A program made the translations under genes and the position numbers. The notes below the pieces were generated by a model. It had not been told where the DNA came from. It made no database searches and saw nothing but the letters and a program-made list of their open reading frames with translations. DNA of 6,185 nucleotides from a virus. Its lineage: Duplodnaviria; Heunggongvirae; Uroviricota; Caudoviricetes. Of the stretch, positions 84 through 6,185 are shown in pieces. The stretch lies in the IMG/VR virus record IMGVR_UViG_2778261570_000026; one strand, written 5' to 3'. Within the stretch, counting starts at the first letter, position 1. Every line of letters begins with the position of its first letter.

Positions 84-383
84 ATGAAACAGAAAATTTC
101 TGGCTTTACTGCCAGCGGCCCCGCTCGGCCTGAAATCCACCCCGGCGATATTTTCCGGGATAACTACGGCGGCACGGTAACGATAAAAAGCGTGGCAGGA
201 CGGTGCGTTACTTACCGCCGTGATGGGTACGGCTATGACTGTGTGATGCCTGTTTATCAGTTCCGGCGTGATTTTTCACTGATACAGGCCACACCACGCA
301 AACAGCCCACCAGCAACGCAAAGGCACAGGCAAATATTCAGAAAATGAAAAACATGATTAACGCATTCAGGGGCAAAAAATGA
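84..383 (+). CDS. Hypothetical protein (99 aa), translationally coupled to the replication gene
   Basis: ATG at 84 is preceded by GAGGA at 71-75 (8-nt spacer). The stop TGA (381-383) overlaps the ATG of the next gene (380-382) in an ATGA junction. I recognise no family for the protein. Confidence 0.55.
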   Translation: MKQKISGFTASGPARPEIHPGDIFRDNYGGTVTIKSVAGRCVTYRRDGYGYDCVMPVYQFRRDFSLIQATPRKQPTSNAKAQANIQKMKNMINAFRGKK

Positions 384-1996: not shown

Positions 1997-2248
1997 ATGA
2001 CCAGAAAAACCAGAGATAAGACAGCGCCAAAATATCGCGCATTAGACATGACAGAGCACGCCTTAAAGGTGGCAATCAGAACGATAGACCGCCATGCCGG
2101 GGAAGGATACGCGAAAGCACATCCCGAACTGATAAGCGCATTCATGACCACAGCGGCGGCAAACTTTGCCACGCTGACCGAAAGGGAGATTGCCGAAGCG
2201 GAACAGGTGACAACCATCAACGTTAAAACCGGAGAGCATACAGCATGA
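1997..2248 (+). CDS. Hypothetical protein (83 aa), translationally coupled to ssb
   Basis: ATG at 1997 has GGGGAG at 1982-1987 upstream (9-nt spacer). Stop TGA (2246-2248) overlaps the ssb ATG (2245) in an ATGA junction. No recognisable family. Confidence 0.5.
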   Translation: MTRKTRDKTAPKYRALDMTEHALKVAIRTIDRHAGEGYAKAHPELISAFMTTAAANFATLTEREIAEAEQVTTINVKTGEHTA

Positions 2249-2667
2249 CAGCACAGATAGCGGCTTACGGGCGGCTGGTGGCTGACCCGCAGTTAAAGAC
2301 CACCAGCAAGGGAACACAAATGGCGATGGCGAGTATGGCGGTTCCCCTGCCGTGCAGCCAGGCCGATGACGGAACGGCGACGATGTGGTTATCCGTCCTG
2401 GCGTTTGGCAGACAGGCCGACGCACTGGCCAGACACCACAAAGGCGAACTGGTGAGCGTGGCGGGTAACATGCAGGTAAGCCAGTGGACAGGCCAGAACG
2501 GCGAAACGCGGCAGGGCTGGCAGGTTATCGCAGACAGCGTAATCAGTGCGCGAACGGCGCGACCGGGCGGCAAAAAAGGCCAGCAGGGCCAGGCTACTGA
2601 CGCACTGAACAGGGCAAAACAACAGGCGGGAAATGATGCCCCGTACGGGGATAACATATCGTTTTAA
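2245..2667 (+). CDS. ssb: Single-stranded DNA-binding protein (OB-fold SSB family)
   Basis: 140-aa protein that aligns by eye with the E. coli SSB OB-fold: GRLVADPQL vs GNLGQDPEV, WLSVLAFGRQAD vs WHRVVLFGKLAE, KGELVSVAGNMQVSQWTGQNGETRQ vs [24 protein letters not shown]. Short Gly/Gln-rich tail ending in DNISF, resembling the SSB C-terminal DDDIPF tip. Confidence 0.8.
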   Translation: MTAQIAAYGRLVADPQLKTTSKGTQMAMASMAVPLPCSQADDGTATMWLSVLAFGRQADALARHHKGELVSVAGNMQVSQWTGQNGETRQGWQVIADSVISARTARPGGKKGQQGQATDALNRAKQQAGNDAPYGDNISF

Positions 2668-2681
2668 GCAACGAGTGACAG

Positions 2682-2707
2682 AAGCCGGGATTTTTCCCGG
2701 CTTTTTT
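2682..2707 (+). terminator. Rho-independent terminator after ssb
   Basis: Stem AGCCGGGA (2683-2690) pairs with TCCCGGCT (2695-2702) around a TTTT loop, followed by a T-run (2702-2707). Confidence 0.7.
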
Positions 2708-2807: not shown

Positions 2808-2875
2808 ATGATGATTTCATGATTTGCAATAACAGTCAATTGCATTGCAAAAAATGCAATGATGATTAAAATCAT
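2808..2875 (+). promoter_or_regulatory. Candidate sigma70 promoter of the capsid operon overlapped by operator-like dyads
   Basis: -35 TTGCAA (2845-2850), 16-bp spacer, -10 TAAAAT (2867-2872). Inverted repeat ATTGCATT (2839-2846) / AATGCAAT (2853-2860) spans the -35; palindrome ATGATT-AA-AATCAT (2862-2875) covers the -10. Further TTGCAAT (2824-2830) and ATGATTT copies (2811-2817, 2819-2825) lie upstream. Promoter call is by consensus matching only. Confidence 0.4.
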
Positions 2876-2924
2876 GGCTGACTTTTCGTTATGTTTGTTT
2901 TTTAGTCAAAGAGGAATCTCATTT

Positions 2925-3131
2925 ATGGGAACACAGAAGCCGGGCGGTGTATCCGTGTACATCAGCCCCGATATTATCGCCGCACTTAATGCGCGCTTTG
3001 AGGAGAACGCAGAGGCAGGGAAAAAAGTCGGCCTTGATCCGTTGTGCATGGTGAAGCCGTCAGTCGGCTGGATGGTACGCAGTCATTTACGCGCTGCGCT
3101 TGGCATGAATCAGCCTCATGGGGGTGAGTAA
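2925..3131 (+). CDS. Small protein (68 aa) directly upstream of and coupled to the major capsid gene; function unknown
   Basis: Strong RBS AAAGAGGAA (2909-2917), 7-8 nt before ATG 2925. The ORF-track start at 2859 would place the N-terminus inside the predicted promoter and has no RBS. Stop TAA (3129-3131) overlaps the ATG of the capsid gene (TAATG). Confidence 0.55.
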   Translation: MGTQKPGGVSVYISPDIIAALNARFEENAEAGKKVGLDPLCMVKPSVGWMVRSHLRAALGMNQPHGGE

Positions 3132-4186
3132 TGACAGCGCTGCAACTGGTAAGCACACCAACGCTACTGAAAAATATCGGGCGCGAAGATGTGCCGGAAT
3201 TTAAATTTAATCCGCTCTTTACGACGCTGTTTTTTCCGAATATCGCCACGTTCAGTACGCGAGATATTGCGCTTGATACGCTGGACATTGAAAACGTGGT
3301 CATGAGTCCGTTTTGTTCACCAATGTCAGGCAGTCAGGTTATGCGTGACAAAGGTTTTACAACGAACACTTTCACGCCGGGTTATATGAAGCCCAAACAC
3401 GTTATTGATCCCACTAAAACAATCATGCGCATGGCTGGAGAACAGATCGGCAATGGTCAGTCTTCCCCGGCACTACGCCGCGTAAAAATGGTTCACGACA
3501 GCCAGAAAAAACAGCTTGCTGCCATCAAAGCGCGTGTTGAATGGCTGGCGGTCAATGCCATCACAACAGGCCGTAACGTTATCGAAGGCGAAGGCATTGA
3601 GCGTTATGAAATTGACTGGGGATTACCCGCAACCAATCACATTACACAGGCTGGCGGGAAAGAATGGTCAAAACAGGATGCCGAGACGTTTGATCCGATA
3701 AGCGACATTGAGGCTTACGCTGATTTTTCCGAAGGTACGGTAAATATTATCGTCATGGGTGGCGAAGCCTGGCGTATTTTGCGCTCGTTCCGTCGATTCC
3801 GCGAACTCCTGGACACCCGCCGCGGTTCAAACTCGTCACTTGAACTTGCGCTAAAAGATTTGGGCGGTGTTGTCAGCTTCAAGGGGTATCTCGGTGATGT
3901 GGCGCTCGTGGTTTATTCCGGTCGTTATGACGACGAAAACGGGCAGCAGCAATATTTCCTGAAACAAAACATGATGGTTTTCGGCAATACCGAAAATAAA
4001 GGTCTTGTTGCTTATGGTGCCATCATGGATCAGGACGCGGCACGCGAGGGATTTTCTGAGGGGATGTACTACCCGAAAAATTATATCGTACCGGGCGATC
4101 CGGCGATTGAATACGTGCAGACGCACAGCGCCCCGCAGCCAGTACCCGTGGATATTGGTCGCTTTGTTACCGTCGAAGTGAAATAA
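3131..4186 (+). CDS. Major capsid protein, phage lambda gpE family
   Basis: 351-aa protein with long collinear blocks matching lambda gpE as I remember it: KFKF(N/D)PLF, (E/T)FTPGY(V/M)KPKH, ITQ(S/A)GG(T/K)EWSK, DIEAYA, VNIIV, DTRRGSNS, VS(Y/F)KG, GDVA(I/L)VVYSG, YPKN, GDPA. Length is also close to gpE (341 aa). SD-like GGGGGTGA lies just upstream. Confidence 0.9.
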   Translation: MTALQLVSTPTLLKNIGREDVPEFKFNPLFTTLFFPNIATFSTRDIALDTLDIENVVMSPFCSPMSGSQVMRDKGFTTNTFTPGYMKPKHVIDPTKTIMRMAGEQIGNGQSSPALRRVKMVHDSQKKQLAAIKARVEWLAVNAITTGRNVIEGEGIERYEIDWGLPATNHITQAGGKEWSKQDAETFDPISDIEAYADFSEGTVNIIVMGGEAWRILRSFRRFRELLDTRRGSNSSLELALKDLGGVVSFKGYLGDVALVVYSGRYDDENGQQQYFLKQNMMVFGNTENKGLVAYGAIMDQDAAREGFSEGMYYPKNYIVPGDPAIEYVQTHSAPQPVPVDIGRFVTVEVK

Positions 4187-4196
4187 AGGGGATCGT

Positions 4197-4526
4197 ATGC
4201 CAACACCTTACACGCAATTCCTTTCCGGCACGCAGGAACTGGTCAGCACGCTGGCCTGTTTTGCCAGTGCCGGAGAAATTAAAGCGAGAACTCCGCTGAT
4301 GCAGAACGGCGCGGGCCTGATGGTTGAGTGGGACGGTACACCCGGTAAGGCGGTGTATCTGACCATATCGGACATTAACACGGCCACAAAAAACCGCGCA
4401 CAGGTTTATAAGTGCGGGGTTTTTAATATCGATGAAATTAACTGGCCTGATACAGCGGACACGTTCGAGAAAAAAGTGTCGGCTTTTGTTGGTTCCGGTA
4501 TTTCCGTGCAGCCTTTAGGGCAATAA
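4197..4526 (+). CDS. Head decoration protein, lambda gpD-like
   Basis: 109 aa (lambda gpD is 110). Shares TPLM, WDGT, YK.G.F, WP and KK..AF.G..IS blocks in the same order as gpD. RBS AAGGGGA lies 4 nt before the ATG. Sits immediately downstream of the capsid gene. Confidence 0.7.
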   Translation: MPTPYTQFLSGTQELVSTLACFASAGEIKARTPLMQNGAGLMVEWDGTPGKAVYLTISDINTATKNRAQVYKCGVFNIDEINWPDTADTFEKKVSAFVGSGISVQPLGQ

Positions 4527-4540
4527 TTTTGTGGTGATTT

Positions 4541-4966
4541 ATGACTGAGAAAGCAAATTCAACCAGAGCATTGATCATGGCACTGCCTGAGGCGCAGAAA
4601 TACCCGACGCTTGCGGAAAATCTCGCAAATAATGGCGCATCACTGACAGAAGCCCGAACGGTGCTTACTGCAAAGGCTGAGAGTGATAAACAGCGCATAG
4701 AGGGTATCAAGGCGTTACCGCTGGCATCAAAATACCCTGAGTTCACCAGTAAGCTGATTGAGTGTGGTTCTGAAGTAATGACAGTAACCTATGCACAAAC
4801 GTTACTGGCTGCCGTGGATGCCCAGGCAATGATGCAGGAAAAGAAAACGGCTTTTCTGTTTGATGCGTACATGGAAAAGCACAGCCCGAAATGTGTTGGA
4901 CCAGCAGCCGGTGATGGCAACGCCGGACTGACCGAAGATGAAAAGCTGTTGCTGTCTGTTAAGTAA
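4541..4966 (+). CDS. Hypothetical protein (141 aa) with an internal tandem duplication; last gene of the capsid operon
   Basis: Co-directional, tightly packed after the gpD-like gene and followed by a terminator. Contains two related ~33-aa modules (LPEAQKYPTLAENLANNGASLTEARTVL and LPLASKYPEFTSKLIECGSEVMTVTYAQTLL). No recognisable family. Confidence 0.6.
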   Translation: MTEKANSTRALIMALPEAQKYPTLAENLANNGASLTEARTVLTAKAESDKQRIEGIKALPLASKYPEFTSKLIECGSEVMTVTYAQTLLAAVDAQAMMQEKKTAFLFDAYMEKHSPKCVGPAAGDGNAGLTEDEKLLLSVK

Positions 4967-4980
4967 CTGAAATGAACGTT

Positions 4981-5012
4981 CGCGAGGTTGGCAAGGCCTC
5001 GCGATTTTTTTT
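4981..5012 (+). terminator. Rho-independent terminator closing the capsid operon
   Basis: Stem CGCGAGG (4981-4987) pairs with CCTCGCG (4997-5003) around a 9-nt loop, followed by a T8 run (5005-5012). Confidence 0.7.
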
Positions 5013-5022
5013 GTGTCCGGAA

Positions 5023-5128
5023 CGGTGGTGATCACCCCAATTTTCACGGGTCCTTTCCGGAACCTGAAACACCGGGGGTACGTGTACGCGCAAAAACGCG
5101 CTATTTATGACGCTTTCCGGGAAAGGGT
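5023..5128 (+). repeat. Left copy of an inverted repeat (~100 bp) upstream of the Nu1-like gene
   Basis: Core 5065-5110 equals the reverse complement of 5793-5838 at 40 of 46 positions with no gap, including a perfect 17-mer (5086-5102 = reverse complement of 5801-5817). Weaker similarity extends to about 5023-5128. Contains the palindrome GGTGATCACC (5027-5036) and CTTTCCGG motifs (5053-5060, 5113-5120). Confidence 0.6.
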
Positions 5129-5177: not shown

Positions 5178-5618
5178 ATGAATAATAAAGATTGTTTTGT
5201 TAGTCAGCAGGAAATAGCAGAACATTTCAAGGTCAACAGAACCACTATTCGCGCATGGACCAAACAGGGCATGCCGTATCTTGATGCGGATCGCGGAAAG
5301 TCCGGCGGTTATCACATCGGACACACATTATTCTGGTGCATGGGTAAAAGTCATCTTGATGCTATTGAGTACCACGGAGAAACCAGCGCACTGGAAAAGA
5401 TTATGGTTGCCAGGTTGATTTCATCAGAGCGCGACGAGTATTTCAGTGAAGAAACAGAACAGCGATTTGATAATGGTCTGCAGATTTACGGGTACTCGCC
5501 GGAAGATGTGAGCAAGGCACGAAATAAAATGGCTGGCTTTCTGGCTGGGTGGCGTCATGCCGTAGCCGTTCGCCGTGAGCATCTGCAACAATCTGTAGTT
5601 ACAGAGCAGGAAAGCTAA
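5178..5618 (+). CDS. Nu1-like winged-HTH DNA-binding protein: candidate terminase small subunit or packaging-specificity factor
   Basis: 146 aa. The N-terminus (VSQQEIAEHFKVNRTTIRAWTKQGMPYL) closely parallels the lambda Nu1 DNA-binding N-terminus as remembered (KKQLADIFGASIRTIQNWQEQGMPV). The remainder is not recognisably Nu1-like and the protein is shorter than Nu1. No large terminase gene follows. Nu1-like HTHs also occur in small regulators, so the function is uncertain. Confidence 0.55.
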   Translation: MNNKDCFVSQQEIAEHFKVNRTTIRAWTKQGMPYLDADRGKSGGYHIGHTLFWCMGKSHLDAIEYHGETSALEKIMVARLISSERDEYFSEETEQRFDNGLQIYGYSPEDVSKARNKMAGFLAGWRHAVAVRREHLQQSVVTEQES

Positions 5619-5774: not shown

Positions 5775-5880
5775 CCACCCTTCCGAAAAATCTCATAAAC
5801 AGCGCGTTTTTGCGCGTCCCATGACCCCCGGTGTTTCATTTTCCAGGAAGGACCCGCCACAATTACGGCATTGTTTCCCA
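5775..5880 (-). repeat. Right copy (inverted orientation) of the repeat flanking the Nu1-like gene
   Basis: Reverse complement of 5793-5838 matches 5065-5110 at 40 of 46 positions. Flanking similarity is weaker (about 17 of 30 in the outer arm). Confidence 0.6.
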
Positions 5881-5900
5881 TCATCACGGAGGCCATGACA

Positions 5901-6185
5901 ATGACCGAAGCCGAAATGCTCAAAATGATTCGCCGCGTTACCGGAGCCAACCAGGCAGCAGGCAAACAGGAGGCCACGCAGCCGGACAGCGTGATAGCCG
6001 AAAATTACGCGCGTGTGGTGGCTGAGGTGATGCGCCGTGACGGTATTGAGCTTAACGGCGTGGATATGCGCAATATATGCACCAGAGTTCTGGAGATGTT
6101 GTCATACCGTCGCCGCGTGCAGATGTACCAGGAGAAAGAAAAAATTACTTACCACTGGAAGAAGCCGGAGCGGTTACGACGTTAA
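5901..6185 (+). CDS. Hypothetical protein (94 aa)
   Basis: ORF is in frame from 5871, but GGAGG (5888-5892) gives a good spacer only for ATG 5901; ATG 5895 is 2 nt after the SD. Stop TAA is at 6183-6185, the window edge. No recognisable family. Confidence 0.5.
   Translation: MTEAEMLKMIRRVTGANQAAGKQEATQPDSVIAENYARVVAEVMRRDGIELNGVDMRNICTRVLEMLSYRRRVQMYQEKEKITYHWKKPERLRR

Follow-up and report, generated by a model that had tools for sequence, protein, structure and literature searches.

A divergent EcCICFT073-type capsid block with a Nu3-like scaffolding-domain gene in a probable Gram-negative phage-inducible chromosomal island

A coat protein gene is present in 21 of 29 reference Gram-negative phage-inducible chromosomal islands (PICIs) (PMC10111431), and the PICI definition of SatelliteFinder counts "Capsid morphogenesis" as a core component. 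In EcCICFT073, the E. coli prototype, descriptions of the coat (c1499) and decoration (c1500) genes date from 2018 (PMC6092414), and this is the only such element for which helper-dependent induction, packaging and high-frequency transfer have been demonstrated experimentally (PMC6092414, PMC6739421). Here we analyze the IMG/VR record IMGVR_UViG_2778261570_000026, a stretch of 6,185 nt (hereafter the window) in which four co-directional genes on the + strand, encoding proteins of 68, 351, 109 and 141 aa, form a capsid operon. The window very probably belongs to a classical Gram-negative PICI of the EcCICFT073 type, and its four genes are very probably the conserved capsid block of that family. 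Such a block has already been described for E. coli PICIs; the window carries a rare and divergent allele set of it, i.e., a new member of a known family, and what is new here is the homology of the 141-aa gene to the lambda scaffold gene Nu3, a modest gain in annotation. An earlier note, made from the letters alone, had seen a capsid operon with gpE before gpD and without scaffold or protease; its observations on the sequence stood, its statement about the scaffold did not, and the known EcCICFT073 block had gone unrecognized in it.

The closest described block, c1498-c1501 of EcCICFT073 (L003:5463-7497), has the same four genes in the same order, the same TAATG overlap, promoter and terminator, and likewise cos and rpp directly downstream. 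The window differs from it in lacking an upstream PerC gene, in having a RepA-type instead of a D5-type replicase, and in the core of its cos sites, which is not that of lambda. In the window, the junction of the 68-aa and capsid genes reads GAGTAATGACA, the TAA stop (3129-3131) overlapping the ATG (3131-3133) by one base. TAATG is found at this junction also in EcCICFT073 and in an Edwardsiella relative, and the two genes are probably translationally coupled through it, as the earlier note had proposed. A Shine-Dalgarno sequence, AAGAGGA, stands before the 68-aa gene at 2909-2915. Further upstream lies a sigma-70-like promoter (-35 TTGCAA, 2845-2850; 16-nt spacer; -10 TAAAAT, 2867-2872) with inverted repeats, ATTGCA..TGCAAT and ATGATT-NN-AATCAT, the latter spanning the -10. 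This block is nearly invariant between window-type and CFT073-type alleles (where the -10 is TATAAT), although the proteins encoded downstream are only 29-65% identical; we infer a functional promoter and a protein that binds the repeats. Predicted terminator hairpins bracket the operon, one at 2682-2703 (-19.9 kcal/mol, z = -5.3) and one at 4980-5004 (-16.9 kcal/mol, z = -3.5), which bears out the description of a four-gene operon with its own promoter and terminator. A second upstream hairpin, at 2718-2748, faces the opposite way with its T run on the - strand; back to back, the hairpins within 2682-2748 make a bidirectional terminator pair between the SSB (single-stranded DNA-binding protein) gene and the capsid promoter.

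The 351-aa protein is a major capsid protein of the lambda gpE family, with the HK97 fold (Phage_cap_E: E = 2.9e-47; 161.8 bits against a cut-off of 22.9). It matches, nearly over its full length, the PDB entry 3bqw (E = 3.9e-152), titled "putative capsid protein of prophage", which we take to be the crystal structure of the CFT073 capsid protein, and it also matches lambda gpE structures (7vi9, E = 2e-87). Its identity to lambda gpE is 45%. The 109-aa protein belongs to the gpD family of decoration, or cement, proteins (32.8 bits against a cut-off of 29.1 for PF02924; phrog_49, E = 1.4e-18) and is 34% identical to lambda gpD (BLASTP, 8e-13). E therefore precedes D, as first read from the sequence. 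Among 369 matching phage records, none exceeds 48% identity to the PICI coat, which argues for an old satellite lineage and against a recent capture.

Judged by its sequence, the 141-aa protein is a cut-down scaffold, homologous to the C-terminal portion of lambda Nu3/gpC. It matches phrog_1999 (1.3e-11) and the far C-terminus of phrog_53, a head-protease family; in a control search, residues 117-200 of lambda Nu3 (gpC 355-438) match phrog_1999 at 2.7e-26, and the CFT073 counterpart c1501 (137 aa) does so at 1e-64. The C-terminus of a 501-aa gpC-type S49 protease-scaffold encoded beside a related island (L053) aligns by BLASTP with the window protein over its residues 12-140 (30% identity, E = 3e-5) and with c1501 (36% identity, E = 5e-9). 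In a non-circular hhalign comparison of a PICI-only profile with a phage-only Nu3/gpC profile, residues 8-125 map onto Nu3 residues 83-190 (98.4%, E = 7.2e-15, 118 columns). The family alignment displays two repeats of the form IMALxEA...LA...GMTV..A..LLAA in the 141-aa protein and its relatives, and the C-terminal tail F-D/E-x-F/Y-M-x-x-H-S-P...LL is common to the PICI and the Nu3/gpC proteins. Single-sequence searches found nothing further, an exhaustive phmmer run returning only the protein itself and a fragment and a word-indexed search likewise, so the homology to Nu3 is visible at the profile level only.

The 141-aa protein lacks both the S49 domain and the first ~80 residues of Nu3. Peptidase_S49 has no match in it or anywhere in the element, and its gene is a separate reading frame after the decoration gene and not the in-frame 3′ part of an S49 protease gene. 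Its AlphaFold2 (AF2) model (mean confidence, pLDDT, 73) is all-helical, with a disordered linker at 118-131 and a short terminal helix, and fold searches gave nothing significant; a helical, partly disordered model is consistent with a scaffolding protein and proves nothing. The earlier note had announced the lack of a scaffold in its own title while also naming both small proteins as candidates for scaffold-like functions. The latter idea is supported for the 141-aa protein by its homology to Nu3, which contradicts that title, and finds no supporting evidence for the 68-aa protein. Our literature search returned no paper linking these islands to Nu3. NCBI calls the 137-aa CFT073-type relatives (P0024-P0034) "phage head-tail connector protein", a name probably left over from the former designation of gpC as "head-tail preconnector". 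In a Salmonella island, a 79-aa open reading frame (ORF) occupies the Nu3-like position (L086:9719-9958) and is missed by the family HMM; its end, ...NNLLLSVPAH, is tail-like by eye, and it may be a minimal, tail-only variant of the scaffold. A second integrase is encoded in the same island.

E. coli chromosomes contain matches to the window, and the surroundings of a 96.5% identical copy (L001) allowed us to delimit the element: 10,701 bp between 26-nt direct (att) repeats. A tyrosine integrase (PF00589) marks its left end, with a tRNA-Pro gene ~210 bp away; next comes an AlpA regulator (PF05930, 33.3 bits; cut-off 21), and at the other side, past the 104-aa ORF, stands the chromosomal gene yejO. 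Between the helicase gene and the 83-aa ORF of the window, six 13-nt iterons of the type AAAAGTGGGGAG are found at 1794-1987, in a region that includes a 26-nt unit repeated exactly, 168 bp apart; this would be the expected PICI replication origin. Integrase, AlpA, RepA with iterons, SSB, capsid block, Rpp (redirecting phage packaging) and cos-like sites together make up the architecture of a classical Gram-negative PICI. The 146-aa helix-turn-helix (HTH) protein encoded after the operon matches RppC (6hlk, E = 1.5e-33) and is 84% identical to RppA (c1503) of EcCICFT073, where Rpp redirects the small terminase of the helper to the island cos site. The presence of this homolog fixes both the type of the element and its dependence on the helper terminase. 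According to the gene content of L001, the complete 10.7-kb element contains no portal, protease, large terminase, tail or lysis genes, nor any head-completion genes. The absence of portal and protease reported for the operon is thus confirmed well beyond the window, and a helper would have to supply both.

Table 1. Features of the window, with the EcCICFT073 counterparts of the four capsid-block proteins and their percentage identities
Feature	Position	Strand	Evidence	Counterpart (identity)
DUF4222 protein	84-383	+		
RepA-type AAA_25 helicase, 471 aa	380-1795	+	AAA_25, E = 3e-44	
83-aa ORF	1997-2248	+		
SSB	2245-2667	+		
Intrinsic terminator ending the upstream replication/SSB transcript (predicted)	2682-2706	+	perfect 9-bp inverted repeat, then T run	
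Promoter/operator region of the capsid operon (predicted)	2808-2886	+	promoter scan, inverted repeats	
PICI-specific orphan protein, 68 aa	2925-3131	+	phrog_3255 (function unknown)	c1498 (65%)
Major capsid protein, lambda gpE family (HK97 fold), PICI lineage, 351 aa	3131-4186	+	PF03864	c1499 (65%)
Head decoration (cement) protein, lambda gpD family, 109 aa	4197-4526	+	PF02924 (HDPD)	c1500 (49%)
Stand-alone Nu3-like scaffolding-domain protein, 141 aa	4541-4966	+	phrog_1999, BLASTP, hhalign	c1501 (29%)
Intrinsic terminator closing the operon (predicted)	4980-5012	+	10-bp GC-rich stem, then T8	
cos-like site, directly after the operon	5045-5115	+	alignment with CFT073 cos, lambda left end and ON470624 cos region	
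Rpp homolog, 146-aa HTH protein	5178-5618	+	PDB 6hlk	
Second cos-like site, inverted	5790-5860	-	reverse complement aligned with the first site	
104-aa ORF	5871-6185	+		

Two inverted cos-like sites flank rpp. Their flanks resemble the cos sites of lambda and CFT073, and the cosN core differs from GGGCGGCGACCT; a search of the window for the lambda cosN gave only chance-level matches with 3 mismatches. In CFT073, a lambda cosN stands immediately after the c1501 terminator. By class, the window sites instead go with the cos region that lies upstream of terS in ON470624, a contractile-tailed prophage whose head module is of the lambda type, and across loci the cos class tracks the type of the capsid module. 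Because the match is to ON470624 and not to lambda, lambda may not be the relevant helper for the window allele, and these comparisons suggest that window-type islands use another helper.

The replicases of the two islands have different bodies, a 471-aa RepA/AAA_25 protein in the window and a 584-aa D5-type primase in EcCICFT073 (L003:2242-3996). The first ~131 residues of both are 62% identical, a common N-terminal domain on two different bodies. Just past the right end of the window, after the last ORF and before the att site, five closely spaced GTGAC repeats are found (L001:18170-18225). An Rfam scan of the window returned no RNA element.

The order SSB, 68-aa, coat, decoration and Nu3-like gene is nearly universal across 80 IMG/VR loci, and the arrangement of the genes, the TAATG junction and the promoter have been kept in E. 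coli, Salmonella and Edwardsiella alike. No allele of any of the four genes is disrupted (19 of 19 intact for the 68-aa gene). Compared with the CFT073 alleles, the ratio of nonsynonymous to synonymous substitution rates (dN/dS) is 0.21 for the 68-aa gene, 0.10 for the coat, 0.13 for the decoration and 0.24 for the Nu3-like gene, in comparisons that share this one reference and are not independent events; on this measure all four genes are under purifying selection. Neither of the two small proteins, of 68 and 141 aa, has a match in phage records. It is reasonable to regard the capsid block as a satellite lineage that is old and has been maintained.

The types of coat, decoration and Nu3-like gene are strictly inherited together, either as E1-D1-N1 or as E2-D2-N2, with an Rpp type common to both sets. 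The window-type block is rare (19-23 of 5,426 complete E. coli genomes), and the CFT type is found in ~595 of them (~11%). A helper-embedded island of Edwardsiella has the 68-aa, coat and decoration genes only; with this and with the 79-aa fourth gene of Salmonella, the core of the block is these three genes and the scaffold partner is variable. Two related islands (L053:7227-9555 and L084:10120-12370), one of them the Edwardsiella island just mentioned, sit in the portal gene of lambdoid prophages, with gpC, D and E of the helper itself coming after a truncated portal ORF; both belong to the helper-embedded class reported in PMC10111431.

The 68-aa protein has relatives in islands of E. coli, Salmonella and Edwardsiella, and in all cases examined its gene immediately precedes that of the coat. 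A search of 50,697 GenBank phage records gave no match to it, and neither did the head regions of lambda or of the co-resident CFT073 prophages. In the family pattern, two helices come after an extended N-terminal stretch, GGVxVYISPDI, and two helices are also predicted in the AF2 model (pLDDT 78); fold searches found nothing significant. Against Pfam, the family gave only sub-threshold matches to ribbon-helix-helix (RHH) families: BrnA_antitoxin for 5 of 14 members (best E = 0.017) and RHH_1 for 4 of 14 (best E = 0.15). A derivation from gpC residues ~255-300, upstream of the Nu3 repeats, was considered and rejected (hhalign E 0.2-0.6; score 10.5, inside the 9.3 +/- 2.1 of column-shuffled profiles); the scan of IMG/VR for gpC used in it returned only sequences at least 98% identical to lambda gpC and added no profile depth. 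The invariant C-terminal G-G/A-E of the 68-aa protein overlaps the purine-rich stretch before the coat ATG, so its conservation may reflect a nucleotide-level constraint, i.e., ribosome binding. Scans of genome contigs with the 68-aa family and with the coat alignment gave no confirmed loci, and PADLOC found no defence-system match for any of the four operon proteins.

Comparison with better-known assembly systems helps in placing the block. Its coat and cement proteins and the C-terminal region of its scaffold all have homologs in lambda, in which E, D and Nu3 are known physical partners. The order of these genes is Nu3, D, E in lambda and E, D, Nu3-like in the PICI block; moreover, the PICI scaffold is stand-alone and without S49, the 68-aa gene has no lambda counterpart, and portal, terminase and head-completion genes, all present in lambda, are missing from the island. 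Staphylococcus aureus pathogenicity islands (SaPIs) offer a likeness by role, in which no sequence relationship is expected: they too encode relatives of the helper scaffold and coat, CpmB being an alternative scaffold and Ccm of SaPIbov5 a coat homolog, both of which compete with helper proteins and change capsid size (PMC6893505). The E. coli prototype EcCICFT073 differs in this respect, no size change having been seen with lambda. Capsid-forming PICIs (cf-PICIs) such as EcCIEDL933 share with the window element the int, alpA and rep backbone and a coat protein of their own. Beyond these, they have genes for portal, protease, head-tail connectors, HNH and both terminase subunits, and the small capsids that they make are their own. 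The complete 10.7-kb element has none of these further genes and is not a cf-PICI; published trees also separate the cf-PICI and classical PICI coat lineages.

We hypothesize that, upon induction by a helper with a lambda-type head, the operon would provide coat, cement and internal scaffold as a matched set. The Nu3-like protein would bind coat subunits via its conserved C-terminal tail, as is thought for Nu3/gpC; shells would nucleate on the helper portal and mature by the helper protease, yielding satellite-built or mixed capsids; and the helper terminase, redirected by Rpp, would fill these heads with island concatemers, four times 10.7 kb being ~43 kb. The 68-aa protein would act either as a coat-coupled assembly factor or as the operon's own regulator. 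Taken as a whole, an EcCICFT073-type capsid block encoding a matched shell set is the best explanation we can offer, and we give it an even chance.

Several observations weigh against it. Deletion of c1499 or c1500 changed neither the resident helper's transfer of the island nor interference with lambda, and the authors report no phenotype (PMC6092414). With c1499 replaced by cat, transfer still reached up to about 1e6 per ml (PMC6092414), and EcCICFT073 DNA packaged with lambda was phage-sized (PMC6092414). Of the genes after ori, rppA (c1503) alone interfered with lambda when expressed singly (PMC6739421). The co-inheritance of coat, decoration and Nu3-like types comes from two allele sets, and tight linkage alone could produce it; the presence of the PICI coat protein in particles is also a presumption. 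The possibility that published "c1501::tetA" strains disrupt the scaffold gene was rejected: the primer arm ends at the c1501 stop (L003:7438-7497) and the cassette lies after the ORF. With tetA in this place the ORFs are intact and the published negative results stand. Our literature search found no later functional work on c1498-c1501. As the published knockouts argue against an essential role in transfer under laboratory conditions, we regard the mechanism itself, a satellite-owned scaffold, coat and cement assembling on the helper portal and protease, as tentative and somewhat short of an even chance.

The main rival is size redirection, in which the coat homolog, as a Ccm-like protein, and the truncated scaffold, as a CpmB-like one, would divert helper coat into small shells that fit one or two 10.7-kb copies and exclude the helper genome, with the natural helper only and not with lambda. 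A scaffold that has no protease but retains the conserved C-terminal tail, paired with a coat homolog, is what such a scheme would use; PmCI172, a related island with a coat homolog of its own, makes small capsids (PMC6092414), and, as the cos class of the window matches that of a contractile-tailed prophage with a lambda-type head and not that of lambda, the latter may be the wrong helper for testing this allele. However, all EcCICFT073 DNA packaged with lambda was of phage size, deletion of c1499 or c1500 neither relieved interference nor altered transfer by the resident CFT073 helper (PMC6092414), and our literature search gave no small-capsid data for classical PICIs of E. coli. These results speak against the size-determining role suggested in the earlier note, in its simple form and at least with lambda and the resident CFT073 helper, and we consider size redirection unlikely. 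More serious, and only a little less probable than its converse, is the reading of the 68-aa protein as an (auto)regulator of the operon and not an assembly factor, acting as an RHH-like dimer on the inverted repeats over the -35 and -10; it is compatible with either view of the other three genes. The gene is the first of the operon and lies beside a conserved promoter rich in inverted repeats, the extended N-terminal segment followed by two helices would suit such a protein, and its sole Pfam matches, although below threshold, are to BrnA_antitoxin and RHH_1. Neither the family searches nor the fold searches gave evidence favouring a role in assembly over one in regulation.

The genes could also be spare copies that complement the shell genes of the helper, useful where helper-embedded islands interrupt head genes until they excise. 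Relatives that interrupt the portal gene of a lambdoid prophage (L053, L084) and published insertions in the capsid gene E (PMC10111431) fit this idea, which nevertheless appears improbable: excision restores the interrupted helper gene (PMC10111431), the distance between island and phage coats makes simple substitution doubtful, the window-type element lies near a tRNA-Pro gene and not in a prophage, and the knockouts had no phenotype (PMC6092414). That same lack of phenotype for c1499 and c1500 (PMC6092414) is what one would expect of a non-functional remnant of captured phage head genes. This last explanation is hardly credible when every allele is intact, dN/dS is low for all four genes, order, junction and promoter are conserved from E. 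coli to Salmonella and Edwardsiella, and the CFT-type block occurs in about one in nine complete E. coli genomes.

The CFT073 form of the block is thus common, selected and a marker of PICIs, and its discoverers reported no phenotype for it. Recognizing three mutually interacting shell parts in it, i.e., scaffold, coat and cement, turns the vague label of "capsid morphogenesis" into specific experiments; c1498, c1501 and their relatives, together with the choice of helper, are the likely reasons for the lack of a phenotype so far. In a bolder extension, for which we see only a slim chance, the scaffold, coat and cement and the 68-aa factor would build, with natural helpers that have lambda-type heads and are apparently not lambda, satellite-specific and possibly smaller shells on stolen portals. 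If this were true, classical EcCICFT073-type PICIs would be intermediate between whole-capsid thieves and the tail-stealing cf-PICIs, and the lack of phenotype to date would reflect the helpers and assays used.

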